Part shown: positions 1-54,588 of the stretch, piece by piece
How the letters are laid out: each line of letters opens with the position of its first letter
Position numbering within the stretch: the first letter of the stretch is position 1
Assembly (NCBI GenBank): GCA_038867615.1
Contig: JAWBYA010000005.1
Span: forward strand, 64,001-128,000
DNA length: 64,000 nt
DNA from: Sulfolobales archaeon
GTDB lineage: Archaea; Thermoproteota; Thermoprotei_A; Sulfolobales; AG1
Direction: 5' to 3'
Translations under genes and position numbers: made by a program
The notes under the pieces: generated by a model
Seen by the model: only the letters and a program-made list of their open reading frames with translations
The model's database searches: none
Told to the model about the DNA's origin: nothing

Positions 1-1119
1 CCCAGCAAGCCTTTCGAGGGTTTTCTCGAATCTTATGAACTGGAGCTCTTTCTCAGGATCTCTGCCAAGCGCTAGTGCTAGAGCATACATCCCTATATTG
101 GCTGGTAGATATCCTGAGGAGTTCTCGAGAACGATCACTCCGAGCCTTTCTTCTGGTAGATAACCCATATATGCCGTGTGGACAAGCACCGATCCTCCGT
201 GGCCGACGAGCTTTCTACCGAGGAAGCTGGGTATTATTCTTAATCCAAGCCCGTAGCCCTCTCCAGGGAACTGTGTGTATGGGTATGTTATCCTTATCCT
301 CTCCATCTCCTCGATACTCTTGCTAGAAACAATCTCGGTGTCATTGAGTCTTCCCCTATTGATCAGCATTGATATATATCTAGCCATATCTATGCAGTTG
401 CTAAGCAAACCACCGTCTGAGGTTATTCCGTAGGGGAATGGTGTTTTAACCAACCTACCCTCACGATCTATGGCATATGGTGATGCTACATCGCTATCCC
501 TCTCAACCTCCTCCTTTGCAAAATAGCTCCTCCTCATACCGAGGGGTTCGAGTATTCTTTTCCTAACAAACTCCTCATAACTCATCCCAGAGACCTTGCT
601 TATGATCATGCCTAGCAAGACATAGCCCTCGTTTAGGTAGAAATACCTCTCGCCAGGCTTTGCAACAGCCCACGAGCCAGCGTCTGAGAGGAATGTCAGC
701 ATATCCTCATAGCTAGATATAGGGATCCAGGTGGCGTTCTCCTCACCAACAGCGCTCCTGATATAGGCCTCGGCATAGGCTAGAGCAGGGATCCCGCTCG
801 TATGGCTCATTAGATGCCATATCCTTATCCTCTCTCCTCCTGGCCTGATATCTAGGGGTATATAGCTATCAACATAGTCATCTATGCTAAGCCTACCCTC
901 CTCAGAGAGGATCATTATAGATAGGCTTGTGAAAGACTTAGTAATAGATCCAATCCCATATACAGTGCTAGGAAGCGCTGGAAGACCCTTCCCATAATCC
1001 CTAAAACCAAAACCCCTCGAATATATGATAGACCCATCCTTAACAACAGCTATGCTTAAGCCAGGAACCTTATTCCTACTCATCCTATCTAGGACAAAAC
1101 TCTCTAGCCTCTCAAACAT
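1..1119 (-). CDS. Serine hydrolase, beta-lactamase/penicillin-recognising family (Pab87-like peptidase); 3' end runs off the window
   Basis: Missing from the ORF track. Manual translation from ATG 1119 gives MFERLESFVLDRMSRNKVPGLSIAVVKDG...YGIGSITKSF (SxxK motif), with YxN (YLNEGY) downstream. Confidence 0.9.
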   Translation of the reverse strand, partial: MFERLESFVLDRMSRNKVPGLSIAVVKDGSIIYSRGFGFRDYGKGLPALPSTVYGIGSITKSFTSLSIMILSEEGRLSIDDYVDSYIPLDIRPGGERIRIWHLMSHTSGIPALAYAEAYIRSAVGEENATWIPISSYEDMLTFLSDAGSWAVAKPGERYFYLNEGYVLLGMIISKVSGMSYEEFVRKRILEPLGMRRSYFAKEEVERDSDVASPYAIDREGRLVKTPFPYGITSDGGLLSNCIDMARYISMLINRGRLNDTEIVSSKSIEEMERIRITYPYTQFPGEGYGLGLRIIPSFLGRKLVGHGGSVLVHTAYMGYLPEERLGVIVLENSSGYLPANIGMYALALALGRDPEKELQFIRFEKTLERLAG

Positions 1120-36106: not shown

Positions 36107-37054
36107 CTACATCGAGCTTTTCTCATAATAGCCACATCTCTTGCAATACCCTCTCTTTACACGCCCCCCACAGATTCTGCAGGTATCCCGAGCCTCTGCC
36201 TTTCTAAGCCCTCCGAAGATCCTTAGGTATCTTGATAATAAGTACGCCTGATCCCTCGACCTAGGCTCCAGGATCTTTGACACACTCTCAATAAGATCTT
36301 CTGTTACCATCGAAGCCCATATATTGCTGAGCGTGACAGACCCGCTCCCAACCTCTATAGGTTCTTTTAACCTATAGTAGGATGGAATCGATAGATCCTC
36401 TAGCAGGAGTCTCAGGATCTCTTTACCCCTAGCTACCCTAGAATAGGAGATCTTGCACTCGGGAGGTATTTTGAGGGCGAGCTCCACCACGCTTTTCGAT
36501 GCCAATGGCTGGATCACCTCTACCCCTAACTCCTCTCCAAGCCTTGAGGAGGAGAACTCCATATAGCTTGATAGATCCTCTATATATCTCGATAGATCCT
36601 CTAGCCTGTAGAGATGCATATATGAATATCCAGCAAAGAGCTCGTCACCAGCATCGCCTGTATAGACGCATCTACACCCAAGCTTGGCTGCATATTCCAG
36701 GGCTATGTATACTGAGACATCGTTCCTCACCTCTATAGGATCGAAGGTATCCATGATCCTTATCACCTCGTCCGTAGCCCTAAGGGCTTCTGAAACACTG
36801 AAGATCTTCTGGTGGATCTCTATCCCCAGTTCTCTCGCAACAAGAGAACCCCAGTAGAGATCCTTTGTAACGCTCTCCTCAAGACCTACAACTATGCCCT
36901 TGAGGGGTATTTTCACAATTTTTCTTGCAATAGTTGCTATATATGATGTGTCTATCCCACCACTCATTATAATGCAGTCGCAAGCCCTTGACTCGATTTC
37001 TTTTGAAACGAGATCAGTGAGGATCTTTGAGGCATTGATGCAATCAATCCTCAG
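36107..37054 (-). CDS. Asparagine synthase C-terminal-domain (PP-loop) protein with C-terminal Zn ribbon; probable CTG start
   Basis: SGGIDTS, TGDAGDELFAGY, GKEILR, CRICGG...CKRCG; the frame is open 29 codons upstream of the track ATG. Confidence 0.8.
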   Translation of the reverse strand: MRIDCINASKILTDLVSKEIESRACDCIIMSGGIDTSYIATIARKIVKIPLKGIVVGLEESVTKDLYWGSLVARELGIEIHQKIFSVSEALRATDEVIRIMDTFDPIEVRNDVSVYIALEYAAKLGCRCVYTGDAGDELFAGYSYMHLYRLEDLSRYIEDLSSYMEFSSSRLGEELGVEVIQPLASKSVVELALKIPPECKISYSRVARGKEILRLLLEDLSIPSYYRLKEPIEVGSGSVTLSNIWASMVTEDLIESVSKILEPRSRDQAYLLSRYLRIFGGLRKAEARDTCRICGGRVKRGYCKRCGYYEKSSM

Positions 37055-37103
37055 AAAGACACACCATTTTATCCCTCGTCACAGAGATATTAATGGACTA
37101 GAT

Positions 37104-38270
37104 ATGGTTACCAACCTACCCCCAGAAGCTAGATCTAAGTTCGCTAAGTATCAAGAGGCAAAAACCCCTGAGGAGAAGCTCCAGGCATTGCAAGAATTCC
37201 TCTCAGCAGTTCCGAAGCACAAGGGTACCGAGAACCTTGTTAGATGGGCTAGGAGGAGGATGGCAGAGCTTAGAGAAGAGATAGAGAGCAGAAGATCTAG
37301 AAGAGGGGGCGGAGGACCCTCTCTATTCACCATCGAGAGGTCTGGGGCTGCACAGCTCATAATGATCGGTTTTACAAAGTCTGGAAAAACAGCCCTTCTG
37401 GGGAGGCTTACCAATGCTAAGGTCACGCCATCCGATATACCCTACTCAACCAGAATCCCTATCCCAGGGATGCTTGATTACGAGGATATACAGTTCCAGC
37501 TCGTCGAAGCCCCCTCTATTATAAGGGGTGATAGGGATTCGAGATGGAATAGGAGATCCCTAGGGCTTTTGAGAAACGCTGACGGTGCTTTGATGGTTAT
37601 AGACCTCTCCCAAAACCCCTCCGAGGATTATAAAGAGCTTGTCGAGATCCTTGAGGAGGAGGATATAAGGATCACCAAGCCTAGGGGCTATGCTGTTGTC
37701 GAGAAGGACCAGGGATCGCCGGGCATAAGGATCATATATAACGGCAAACTTATAGACGGGACTAGCGAGGATGTGAAAAAGATCCTTGAGGGCTATAGGA
37801 TCTATAGAGCCACTGTAAAGCTCTATGGAGAAGTAACCCTAGACGATATCGAGAACGCGGTTATGGGGGCAACCATATATAGACCCTCGATCGTTATGGG
37901 TAACAAAGCCGATCTAGATGATGGGAGCAAGTGCGAGGAACTGAGAAAAACAGTACCCCCAGAGATCCCTGTTATATGTTGCTCAGCACTAACCGGGAAA
38001 GGCTTGGAGAACTTGGGCAAAGTTATATTCGAGAGGCTAGAGATCATGAGGATATATACAAAACCCATAAACGCCGAGCCATCTAAAAAACCCCTCGTGA
38101 TCAAGAGAGGATCAACGGTCCTCGAAGTAGCCAAAGCAATACACAAAGATCTATATAGGGGCTTTAAATACGCAAGGATCTGGGGACCCTCAGCAAACTA
38201 CCCAGGCGAGAGAGTGGGTTCAGACCACATACTCAAAGACGGGGATATCGTAGAGATACACGCAGCATAG
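37104..38270 (+). CDS. DRG/OBG-family GTPase with TGS domain
   Basis: MVTNLPPEA...PKHKGTE, GFTKSGKT, NKAD, C-terminal TGS (IHKD...ARIWG...DGDIVEIH). Start trimmed from 36894. Confidence 0.92.
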   Translation: MVTNLPPEARSKFAKYQEAKTPEEKLQALQEFLSAVPKHKGTENLVRWARRRMAELREEIESRRSRRGGGGPSLFTIERSGAAQLIMIGFTKSGKTALLGRLTNAKVTPSDIPYSTRIPIPGMLDYEDIQFQLVEAPSIIRGDRDSRWNRRSLGLLRNADGALMVIDLSQNPSEDYKELVEILEEEDIRITKPRGYAVVEKDQGSPGIRIIYNGKLIDGTSEDVKKILEGYRIYRATVKLYGEVTLDDIENAVMGATIYRPSIVMGNKADLDDGSKCEELRKTVPPEIPVICCSALTGKGLENLGKVIFERLEIMRIYTKPINAEPSKKPLVIKRGSTVLEVAKAIHKDLYRGFKYARIWGPSANYPGERVGSDHILKDGDIVEIHAA

Positions 38271-38542
38271 GGGCTGTTTTCTTTTTGATATTCGTAGGAG
38301 GTATTTACAAGCTTTGAAAGGTAGTGTCCTCGGTGTGGGTCTTCCCACACCAGCCCAGGTGGCGATGGGAGCAGCGCTCCAAGCCACCCGGGGCAAAGCT
38401 AGATGGGAGCCGCGTGCCGTTTGGCTCGACGGTCGCCCATGACCCCGCAGGATCAGAGATCCGAGATCCTGAGGGTGGAGACGAAAACCCCTGGATGTGA
38501 CCATGAATAAAATGAGTGGAATGAACATCCAGGGACAAACGG
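38271..38542 (+). mobile_element. Dispersed element family B, copy 1: promoter plus highly structured ~210-nt RNA (non-autonomous IS-derived/omega-RNA-like)
   Basis: TATA-like TTTACAAG at 38304. Stems GGTGTGGG/CCCACACC, GGTGGC/GCCACC, GGAGC/GCTCC, GAGCC/GGCTC, CAGGATC/GATCCTG, CCCTGGATGT/ACATCCAGGG. Second copy at 29950-30177. Confidence 0.7.
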
Positions 38543-38578
38543 GTAAAGAATAAAAGCCCAGCATAGATAATAAATTCA

Positions 38579-38637
38579 GGGGCGGCGCGCCGGGGAGAAC
38601 CCCCGTGACCGGGGTTCGAATCCCCGCCCGGCTACCA
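38579..38637 (+). tRNA. 3' half of tRNA-Gln with GC-rich leader (candidate split tRNA gene)
   Basis: C-CCCCG-TGAC-CGGGG-TTCGAAT-CCCCG-CCCGGCT-A-CCA covers position 38 to CCA; the implied 5' end AGCCGGG (A1-U72) fits archaeal tRNA-Gln. Leader GGGGCGGCGCGCCGGGGAGAA; AT-rich TATA-like box at ~38549-38556. Confidence 0.8.
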
Positions 38638-38885: not shown

Positions 38886-39998
38886 TTGGTGGGGTCTTTG
38901 ATCAGGGTCGCGATTGTTGGTGTTGGTAATATAGCCTCGATGCTAGTCCAGTCTGTGTATATGTATAAGGCTAGAGGCTCTGTAGAGGGTGTGATGACCG
39001 AGAATATAGGGGGGTATAGGGTTGGGGATATAGATTTTGTAGCAGCCTTCGATATATCCCGTAGAAAGGTTGGTAAGGATCTCGGTGAAGCTATATACGA
39101 GCCCCCCAACAGCGTCCCAAGGATCTTCGATGTTAGGAGAACAGGTGTCACAGTATCGCCAGGCCCTGTTCTAGACGGTGTGGCTCCCCATATGAGGAGT
39201 GTTTTTGAACCTATAGAGACTAACACCGGGCTTGGGGATATCGTTGACATCCTTAGATCTTCCAAAGCCGAGGTTGTGGTAAACCTACTCCCCGTAGGAA
39301 GCGAGGAAGCCTCTAGACTCTACGCAAGAGCCTCCCTCGAGGCTGGTGCTGCCTTTATAAACGCGATCCCTGTTTTCATAGCAAGCGATCCAAGCAATAC
39401 TTGGCAGAAGCTATACAGAGAGGCCAGGATCCCCCTACTTGGCGACGATATAAAGGGGCAGGTTGGTGCTACTATTCTCCACAGAACCCTTATAAAGCTC
39501 CTCCACATGAGAGGGGTTCTCATAGACGAGACATACCAGTTAAACGTTGGGGGTAATACTGATTTCCTCAACATGGTTGATGAAGAGAGACTATATTCCA
39601 AAAGGATCAGCAAGACAAGGGCTGTGACAAGCATACTCCCCTACGGCGATAAGCTTGAGAACGAGGGGAGGGTGAGGATAGGCCCGAGCGACTATATACC
39701 CTTCCTCAACAACACGAAGATAGCATATATATACATAAAAGGAAGATCCTTCGGAGGCCTTCCAGTAACGCTTGAGGCTAAGCTAAGCGTGGATGACAAG
39801 TCAATGGCAGCTGCAGTTCTGCTAGACGCGATAAGGGTCGCCAAACTAGCCCTCGACAGAGGACACGGCGGCCCTATAAGAGGCCCTAGTGCGTATCTAT
39901 TTAAACACCCACCGATCCAGGCACCAGACGATGAGACCGCGTATAGATGGTTCCTAGAATATGTTGAGAAAGGTATCGATATAAACGATGCTAGATAG
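38886..39998 (+). CDS. ino1: myo-inositol-1-phosphate synthase
   Basis: [55 protein letters not shown]. Confidence 0.95.
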
Positions 39999-53130: not shown

Positions 53131-54588
53131 CTAGCCCTTAGCAACCCCTATTGGTCTAAGCCTTGCAACTAGCTTCGCTATCTTAACCCTATCAGCTACA
53201 AGGGCTACTTTATCAACATCCTTATAGGCTCCTGGAGCCTCTTCCGATACTATCCTTGCATCAACAGCCCTCACATATATCCCTCTCCTGCTCAGCTCGT
53301 TTATAACCTGGCTCGCTGGATAGCTCCTAACAGCCCCAGCCCTGCTCATCCACCTCCCAGCACCGTGTGGTGCTGAGTAGAATGTCCTTATACTCTCAGG
53401 TATCCCCACCATAACGAAGCTCCCAGACCCCATGCTACCTGGTATTAGAACAACCTGCCCTGTCTCCTGGTGCTCTTTAGGTATCTCCGGATGACCTGGT
53501 GGGAAAGCCCTGGTGGCTCCCTTTCTATGAACAACAACCTTTCTCCTCTTCCCATCTATATCGTACTCCTCTATCTTTGCTATATTATGGGCCACGTCGT
53601 AGATTATGCTTAGATCTAGTTTATCGGGATCGACGTGGAACACCTGCCTAAAACTCTCCCTAACCCAGTGGGTTATGAGCTGCCTGTTAGTGAAGGCAAA
53701 GTTAGCCGCAGCCCCCATGGCTTGGAAATAGTCCTGTGCCTCTTTAGTATTGAATGGCACGGATGCGAGCTCCCTGTCAGGCGGGTTGACGCCGTATTTC
53801 TTCATAGCCCTCTCCATGATCATTAGATAGTCGCTAGCAACCTGGTGCCCAAGCCCTCTAGATCCGCAGTGGGCCATCACAACAACCTGACCCTCGCTGA
53901 ATATCCCGAGCTTCTTAGCGATAGTGGGGTCGAAGACCTTGTCGACGACCTGGACCTCGAGGAAGTGGTTCCCAGCACCAAGCGTCCCCAGCTGCTCCTT
54001 ACCCCTATCCTTAGCTGTTTTGGAAACCTTGTCAGGGTTAGCCCAGTCTATAAAGCCCCTCGACTCTATATGGTATTTATCATCAGCCCATCCATAGCCC
54101 TTCTGTATAGCCCAGTCAACACCCATGCTGAGCACGTTGTTTATATCCTGCACAGACACCCTGATCTTACCCTCAGCACCAACCCCGCTGGGGATGTTCT
54201 CGAAAAGAGTGTCTACAAGCTCCTTAAGCTTCGGCCTAACATCCTTCTCCATAAGGTTTGTCCTTATAAGCCTAACACCACAGTTAATATCATACCCAAC
54301 ACCTCCAGGGCTTATCACACCCTCATCGACATCGAAAGCAGCAACACCGCCTATGGGGAAGCCATAGCCCTGATGCCCGTCAGGCATTACATATACCTTA
54401 CCAACAACACCTGGGAGTGTTGCTACATTAGCACCCTGTACTAGGGTCATATCCTCCCTCATCTTCTTTATAAGAAACTCATCGCCAAACACAATAACAT
54501 CTGTCCTCATACCAGGCCTAGCACCCTTAGGTATGATCCATGTATACTCGTCTGGACCTCTCTCGATCCTTATCGACACGACATCCAC
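53131..54588 (-). CDS. rtcB: RtcB tRNA-splicing/RNA-repair ligase
   Basis: MPDGHQGYGFPIGG, GYDINCG, GTLGAGNHFLE, HCGSRG, HN, HRKGAT, HGAGR, EEAPGAYK. Confidence 0.97.
   Translation of the reverse strand: MDVVSIRIERGPDEYTWIIPKGARPGMRTDVIVFGDEFLIKKMREDMTLVQGANVATLPGVVGKVYVMPDGHQGYGFPIGGVAAFDVDEGVISPGGVGYDINCGVRLIRTNLMEKDVRPKLKELVDTLFENIPSGVGAEGKIRVSVQDINNVLSMGVDWAIQKGYGWADDKYHIESRGFIDWANPDKVSKTAKDRGKEQLGTLGAGNHFLEVQVVDKVFDPTIAKKLGIFSEGQVVVMAHCGSRGLGHQVASDYLMIMERAMKKYGVNPPDRELASVPFNTKEAQDYFQAMGAAANFAFTNRQLITHWVRESFRQVFHVDPDKLDLSIIYDVAHNIAKIEEYDIDGKRRKVVVHRKGATRAFPPGHPEIPKEHQETGQVVLIPGSMGSGSFVMVGIPESIRTFYSAPHGAGRWMSRAGAVRSYPASQVINELSRRGIYVRAVDARIVSEEAPGAYKDVDKVALVADRVKIAKLVARLRPIGVAKG

Follow-up and report, generated by a model that had tools for sequence, protein, structure and literature searches.

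Split tRNAs are central to the debate over whether tRNA originated as two half-molecules or was broken up later. The catalogue in the available part of a 2014 review comprises 29 genes with 12 anticodons from seven genomes (PMC4033280), and the text available from this review and from another of 2015 (PMC4390854) gives the same catalogue as Chan et al. (2011). In the accessible portion of Chan et al. (2011), split tRNA-Gln is confined to Nanoarchaeum equitans (UUG, divided at 32/33), and the Desulfurococcales contribute only tRNA-Asp and tRNA-Lys. The accessible parts of papers of 2019, 2021, and 2025 cite the same three discovery papers for split tRNAs, and the available part of a 2019 "hybrid tRNA" paper does not mention Gln. 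Our search of the literature to 2025 found no crenarchaeal split tRNA-Gln, to which the supplements of Chan et al. (2011) or GtRNAdb could add entries, and the literature searched held no published split tRNA in connection with Ignisphaera.

[quoted passage not shown] 2005; PMC3218864 Table 1, PMC4033280, PMC4390854, in the parts available). The tRNA-Gln locus described here resembles that pair, as far as those sources describe it, in having two 5′ halves that differ in their anticodons, one 3′ half, a joint at 37/38, GC-rich complementary trailers and leader, a promoter for each piece (here predicted), and a heteromeric EndA (here two gene matches). It differs in isotype and in host, here not a reduced symbiont but a free-living archaeon of the Desulfurococcales/Sulfolobales branch whose genome measures 2.2 Mb; the layout is also conserved across several genera, and relatives with cis introns point to its origin. 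The N. equitans split tRNA-Gln(UUG), as given in PMC3218864 Table 1, is of the same isotype and likewise made from two genes, but its joint lies at 32/33 and only UUG is involved; the present tRNA-Gln is joined at 37/38, with both isoacceptors split and a 3′ half common to the two.

The split tRNAs of the Desulfurococcales (Asp and Lys), in the accounts available, come from the same broad branch, with a 37/38 joint for Asp, intron-bearing relatives interrupted at the same place, canonical hBHBh′ junctions, and a trans helix of about 13 nt, all of which liken them to tRNA-Gln here. They are of other isotypes, however, and each is one tRNA with a private 3′ half, while the 3′ half here is common to two; their halves lie 200 nt to 5 kb apart, and the tRNA-Gln halves here lie on different contigs. 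In Caldivirga (2009; PMC4390854, PMC4033280, in the parts available), as here, a constant 3′ half is combined with alternative pieces carrying synonymous anticodons, and these combinatorial pieces also match a candidate tri-split tRNA-Asp described below; tRNA-Gly of Caldivirga is the only tri-split tRNA found in the literature available to us. Caldivirga belongs to another order, the Thermoproteales, and its split isotypes include Gly (PMC4390854, available part).

The 3′ Half and Its Candidate Partners

The window is the whole stretch of DNA analyzed, 64,000 nucleotides of contig C5 from a Sulfolobales archaeon whose assembly (G000) totals 2.22 Mb in 28 contigs and is 94.4% complete. It contains the following features:

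38549–38556, plus strand: TATA-like box AATAAAAG, at −30 to −23 from the first G of the leader, a putative promoter element
Between box AATAAAAG and leader GGGGCGGCGCGCCGGGGAGAA: spacer of 22 nt
38579–38599, plus strand: GC-rich 21-nt leader GGGGCGGCGCGCCGGGGAGAA, recognized by direct reading and by its complementarity to the trailers
38600–38637, plus strand: 3′ exon of tRNA-Gln CCCCCGTGACCGGGGTTCGAATCCCCGCCCGGCTACCA, common to Gln(CUG) and Gln(UUG)

The exon consists of C38, the 3′ strand of the anticodon stem (CCCCG), a 4-nt variable region, a T arm (CGGGG/TTCGAAT/CCCCG), the 3′ strand of the acceptor stem (CCCGGCT), the discriminator A, and an encoded CCA. Many genomes of the same order have contiguous tRNA-Gln genes whose 3′ part matches its 38 nt with 0 mismatches, which identifies it as tRNA-Gln, and a whole-genome search finds it in single copy in its own genome. 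Within the leader, the first 11–15 nt pair with both trailers, GGAG pairs with positions 32–35, and AA together with C38 makes up the 3′ bulge. A preliminary description of this DNA had reported an intact 3′ half, a 21-nt leader, and a TATA-like box, and direct reading and the exact match to contiguous genes bear it out. We consider 38579–38637 to be a working 3′ half gene, the only one found in the genome, which together with two 5′ half genes would yield two trans-spliced tRNA-Gln isoacceptors; we put the probability of this reading at about 0.9.

The site is unreported by ARAGORN without introns and by the Rfam tRNA model at its gathering score, which find only an unrelated tRNA-Leu in the window; an Rfam scan loosened to E ≤ 1 gave zero tRNA rows at the three half loci, the covariance model being blind to halves. 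Contiguity was checked against four DNA runs, in which depth across the repeat region described below was uninformative. Assembled contigs from two independent runs (X3 and X6) span 38495–38622 with zero differences, so the arrangement is not an assembly artefact. X3 and X6 also have one contig each that matches exactly 38579–38637 with different flanks on both sides, so another organism in the samples has the same split 3′ half gene.

Two 5′ halves lie elsewhere in the genome:

C2:273527–273564: Gln(CUG) 5′ half AGCCGGGTCGTCTAGCGGCCAAGGATGCGGGGCTCTGG, 38 nt, followed by trailer CCCTCCGCGCCGCCCC; TTTAAAT at about −29 to −23
C9:3025–3062: Gln(UUG) 5′ half, anticodon TTG, followed by trailer CCAGGCTGCGCCGCCCCC; AAATATAA at about −33 to −26

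Searched against the 2.2 Mb at ≤2 mismatches, the 15-nt leader core in reverse complement yields one non-self match (C2:273566–273580), and this match lies directly 3′ of the perfect tRNA-Gln(CUG) 5′ half, an adjacency beyond chance. The Gln(UUG) 5′ half was recovered by a similarity search with the CUG one. At ≤7 mismatches, a whole-genome search for 5′ halves returns only C2:273527 and C9:3025, and fuzzy searches of the genome (≤7/31 and ≤8/38 mismatches) found no further Gln-like halves. It had been noted beforehand that the window itself holds no 5′ half, and none was found there. A 5′ half of the form AGCCGGG...CGGGGCT(C/T)TGG with a trailer close to CCGGCGCGCCGCCCC had been predicted; two such genes exist, each with a TATA-like box. 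The proposal of a split tRNA-Gln thus holds; that the one 3′ half would serve both CUG and UUG had not been foreseen. TATA-like boxes, which may act as promoters, are found about 23–33 nt upstream of all three pieces at distances conserved in relatives, and no oligo-T terminator was found after any of the three half genes.

Joined in script, the halves give 76-nt cloverleaves with every stem fully paired (7/4/5/5 bp), which ARAGORN identifies as tRNA-Gln(ctg) and tRNA-Gln(ttg). These are canonical tRNAs for two anticodons otherwise missing from the tRNA set: a whole-genome ARAGORN run that permitted introns returned neither a ctg nor a ttg tRNA, and none of the 43 whole-genome matches to the Rfam tRNA model above its cut-off falls at a Gln locus. 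The check for an intact gene that had been proposed beforehand found no intact tRNA-Gln by ARAGORN, Rfam, or fuzzy searches, although in a 28-contig assembly of this completeness a copy in unassembled DNA is conceivable. The three genes lie on separate contigs, C5 for the 3′ half and C2 and C9 for the 5′ halves, and no cis intron joins them. Standard annotation calls both tRNA-Gln genes missing in these genomes.

The genome also encodes candidate processing enzymes. Two proteins match the EndA family (PF01974; 112 and 31.3 bits), as would fit one catalytic and one structural subunit; their genes are at C1:316186–316440 and C2:116528–116761. The predicted joining enzyme is encoded in the window itself:

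53134–54438 (C5:117134–118438), minus strand: RtcB-family RNA ligase gene (PF01139, 576.9 bits; 485-aa frame)

The Predicted Splice Junction

With either 5′ half, the pieces fall into the 37/38 register. The anticodon stem CGGGG/CCCCG forms the flanking helix h′ (5 bp), and the central helix H consists of 4 bp, G-U pairs included, between C32–U35 (CUCU or CUUU) and GGAG. The 5′ bulge is G36 G37 ^ N (GG^N) and the 3′ bulge A A ^ C38 (AA^C); cleavage in a bulge-helix-bulge motif falls after the second base of the bulge. A register of this kind, with GGAG on positions 32–35, the bulge AA^C, and the joint at 37/38, had been suggested for one anticodon and fits both. GGAG accepts CUCU and CUUU alike by G-U wobble, which makes one leader able to serve two anticodons. 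All 14 trailer-leader pairs from seven genomes keep this register (h′ of 5 bp, H of 4 bp, GG^N, AA^C).

The trailer-leader duplex contains 10–11 consecutive G-C pairs and a few more. Read in the ungapped register, the CUG outer helix has 2 bp, a 2×2 internal loop, and then 10 pairs over the 14 nt examined, or 11 by hand count; the UUG outer helix, counted by hand, has 1 bp, one mismatch, 3 bp, a 1-nt bulge, and 10 bp. The outer helix is interrupted in some pairs, that is, h is relaxed. Duplex energies in G000 are −34.3 kcal/mol for CUG (shuffled trailers averaging −25.6) and −34.5 kcal/mol for UUG (shuffled trailers, −26.6), and across the 14 pairs they range from −31 to −40 kcal/mol. The observed energy was reached by 4/300 shuffles for CUG and 5/300 for UUG, and by up to 15/300 in one pair; with sequences this GC-rich, shuffling makes a weak control. 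The minimum-energy cofolds of ViennaRNA show interior loops in place of the two 3-nt bulges, as is expected from the energy model.

Neighborhood of the 3′ Half

The 3′ half lies between two housekeeping genes, one of them separated from it by a dispersed repeat:

36894–38270: DRG-type GTPase gene, upstream
38272–38541, no strand assigned: MITE-like dispersed repeat of about 270 nt, between the GTPase stop codon and the promoter of the 3′ half
38886–39998: inositol-1-phosphate synthase gene, downstream

The repeat accounts for 52 BLAST rows genome-wide, including its self match, with identities of 65%–96% when that match is set aside. The locus is syntenic in two congeners, G003 and G002. The repeat is present at the site in G003 and absent in G002, in which the GTPase gene adjoins the half's promoter and the same split gene is found. 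Since the site is empty in G002 though the split is there, the repeat insertion is younger than the split. The suggestion that a neighboring mobile-like element hints at how the split arose is therefore abandoned; the repeat is context, outside the tRNA system, and not the cause of the split.

This neighborhood bears on the possibility that the 3′ half is an att-site relic, the 3′ part of a tRNA-Gln left behind by an integrating element while working genes lie elsewhere. The 3′ parts of archaeal tRNAs are common integration targets, the dispersed repeat adjoins the 3′ half, and duplicated tRNA 3′ parts resembling att repeats do occur elsewhere in this genome (C3:267207 and C10:78). The 3′ half, however, is single-copy, leaving no second copy for a repeat pair; ARAGORN and Rfam find no intact tRNA-Gln in the whole genome; and the sequence just upstream is not tRNA but a leader complementary to two trailers. 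Its neighbors are housekeeping genes, the locus is syntenic in G003 and G002, and no integrase or transposase was found among the 10 neighboring ORFs scanned. A relic of integration is thus highly improbable.

Elsewhere in the genome, a tRNA 3′ part CCGGGTTCAAATCCCGGCCGCCGCA is found at C3:267207–267231 (minus strand) and again at C10:78–102 (minus strand), at one end of the 41-kb contig C10. The opposite end of that contig carries a cut-off tRNA match (C10:41191–41241, minus strand). These look like the att repeats of an integrated or circular element.

With introns allowed, ARAGORN reports a cis-spliced gene at 38408–38637, a "tRNA-Asp(gtc)" with a 134-nt intron, and if this were correct the 3′ half would belong to a single long-intron gene. 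The 5′ part of this call, however, falls inside the MITE-like repeat, which is absent from the site in G002; pairing of its acceptor strand AGCCGCG with CCCGGCT, read by hand, includes a C-C mismatch; in sequence the 3′ part is Gln rather than Asp; and the same run gives other implausible introns, of 465–1742 nt. We rejected the call as a stretch of repeat that mimics a tRNA 5′ half, and a cis-spliced tRNA-Asp here is scarcely credible.

Conservation in Related Genera and Families

In four of the five congeners (G001, G002, G003, and G005) there is exactly one 3′ half, its leader of the same type as here, and the CUG and UUG 5′ halves lie on other contigs; G004, the last of the five, is 81% complete and shows the UUG 5′ half alone. 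Both genomes of the sister genus g3 (G007 and G009) have the same one-3′/two-5′ layout, again with the halves on other contigs. The exons are invariant across these genomes, while promoters and flanks diverge. An AT-rich box lies 22 nt before the leader in G000, G001, G007, and G009, and the sequences of the boxes differ. In genus g1 the leader reads GGGGCGGCGCG and the trailers CGCGCCGCCCC, against GGCGGTGGCGGC and GCCGCCACCGCC in g3 (in full, leader GGCGGTGGCGGCGGGAGAA with trailers (A/G)CAGCCGCCACCGCC and (A/G)CGCCGCCACCGCC); the differences between the two genera match, indicating that leader and trailers changed together. Pairing of one 3′ half with two distinct trailers puts a dual constraint on its leader.

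Other relatives show other arrangements. In genus g2 the UUG gene is intact, or interrupted by a 32/33 intron in G010, and only CUG is split, with its own 3′ half that lacks an encoded CCA. In G021 (family f9), CUG is split with a helix of about 30 nt and UUG is intact. The one-3′/two-5′ layout reappears in family f11, whose leader and trailer (GGGAGGAGAGGAGG / CCTCTCCTCCC) are unrelated to those above; the family includes the complete genome G023 (1,319,206 bp), in which pattern searches found no intact tRNA-Gln copy, and the f11 type also matches L147, from a record labelled Fervidicoccaceae. A 3′ half of the same kind occurs in the record of Ignicoccus pacificus DSM 13166 (L049).

These comparisons speak to a further alternative, in which the three loci are decayed pseudogene fragments, dead remnants of tRNAs whose true genes lie in the unassembled 5%–6% of the genome. 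The assembly is indeed only 94.4% complete, and draft assemblies are sometimes without tRNA genes. Yet the three-piece layout recurs in six other genomes of two genera, with exons that stay invariant where flanks diverge and with leader and trailers that co-vary, and each piece retains a TATA-like box at the expected distance. The complete genome of another family (G023) likewise has one 3′ and two 5′ halves and no intact copy by pattern searches. Decay is accordingly very unlikely. The preliminary description had itself raised an att-site relic and a decayed tRNA as alternatives, and both are set aside in view of the single-copy 3′ half, its complementary leader, and the layout in six other genomes.

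Wider Distribution and Origin of the Split

A scan of 185,579 species genomes for GAGAN followed by the 3′ half yielded 117 stretches in four groups. The largest (75/117) has a 5′ half start ≤130 nt upstream and represents cis genes, mostly with a 37/38 intron ending GGAGA(A/T/G)|C. In seven stretches the 5′ half start lies 131–400 nt upstream with an AT-rich spacer between. There is no 5′ half start within 400 nt in 27, and the remaining eight likewise have none but offer <400 nt of available sequence (L096 among them is visibly a cut-off cis gene). L060 is probably a cis gene with a variant 5′ part.

The cis intron of relatives at 37/38 ends GGAGAA|C, the same junction as in the split gene. 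The ends of these introns are the trailer and leader ends seen here, which fits splitting by the opening of an intron hairpin. Additional support comes from a graded series within one order, from intact gene to cis 37/38 intron, to halves 135–259 nt apart, and to dispersed halves. We infer that the split of tRNA-Gln probably arose by the opening of a 37/38 intron. In two MAGs, L101 (JAMOVB010000085.1) and L067 (CAZBXI010000002.1), the 3′ piece starts from position 33, the leader ends CCCGA(A/C), and the cis 37/38 intron is kept; this suggests a 32/33 split of their tRNA-Gln, as is known for tRNA-Gln of N. equitans.

Other Candidate Fragmented Genes

The same genome contains a candidate tri-split tRNA-Asp(GUC) in three pieces, each with a predicted promoter of its own:

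C2:58285–58319, plus strand: piece 1, positions 1–32
C5:~650–705, plus strand: piece 2, a leader, the 5-nt exon TGTCG (positions 33–37), and a trailer
C2:139496–139533, minus strand: piece 3, positions 38–76 with CCA

The loci of the tRNA-Asp pieces are L203, L181, and L187. Joined in script, the three pieces are called tRNA-Asp(gtc) by ARAGORN, and the genome yielded no further tRNA-Asp. Five of six genomes of the genus have the middle piece. Compensatory differences between trailer 1 and leader 2 distinguish the G000 type from the G001/G005 type. Sister genus g3 has a cis tRNA-Asp gene with introns exactly at 32/33 and 37/38 (L217 and L218).

Downstream of the Gln(CUG) 5′ half lies a further element:

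C2:273582–273630 (L153:1556–1604), plus strand: C/D box sRNA-like element of 49 nt, starting 2 nt after the Gln(CUG) trailer

It contains the boxes UGAUGA, CUGA, UGAUGU, and CUGA (C, D′, C′, and D), and its two guides are of 12 nt each; the top Rfam match, sR20, scores 28.4 bits, below the cut-off of 44. The element follows the CUG 5′ half at 5/5 g1 loci and 2/2 g3 loci and was not seen at three g2 loci. Searches with the guides turned up scattered 11-mer matches but nothing that stood out as an rRNA or tRNA target, the rRNA genes not having been located. It is possible that the element is co-transcribed with the Gln(CUG) 5′ half and released by the bulge-helix-bulge cut.

Proposed Mechanism and Implications

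The tRNA-Gln locus shows all the sequence-level features of an archaeal split tRNA, with its splicing predicted. The 3′ half gene would be transcribed from its own promoter as the 21-nt leader plus positions 38–76, and two genes elsewhere would supply positions 1–37 of tRNA-Gln(CUG) and of tRNA-Gln(UUG), each followed by a GC-rich trailer. Once either trailer anneals to the leader, the two halves would be held in place for the tRNA body to fold and for a bulge-helix-bulge to form at 37/38, its flanking helix being the anticodon stem and its central 4-bp helix positions 32–35 with GGAG. The splicing endonuclease would then cut both bulges and RtcB would ligate G37 to C38, so that three genes would yield two mature isoacceptors. 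Every step of this course is predicted, from transcription of the halves through annealing, cleavage, and ligation to aminoacylation of the product.

This seems to be a new split isotype for the Crenarchaeota and a rare arrangement, unreported for tRNA-Gln in this archaeal group. Apart from the Caldivirga sets, where Ala and Glu are reportedly also among the split isotypes, it is the second example of one 3′ half common to two isoacceptors.

A wider reading, which we offer tentatively and rate at somewhat under even odds, is that these genomes use tRNA fragments as interchangeable parts. It would join four elements: the shared Gln 3′ half; the three-gene tRNA-Asp, whose 5-nt middle exon (U33–G37) carries the anticodon; the Gln(CUG) 5′ half co-transcribed with a C/D box sRNA, such that the cut in tRNA-Gln would also release the sRNA precursor; and the repeated splitting of tRNA-Gln across the order by opening of the 37/38 intron (and, in some genomes, that at 32/33). 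If this reading is true, tRNA splitting would be a recurrent outcome rather than a rare accident.
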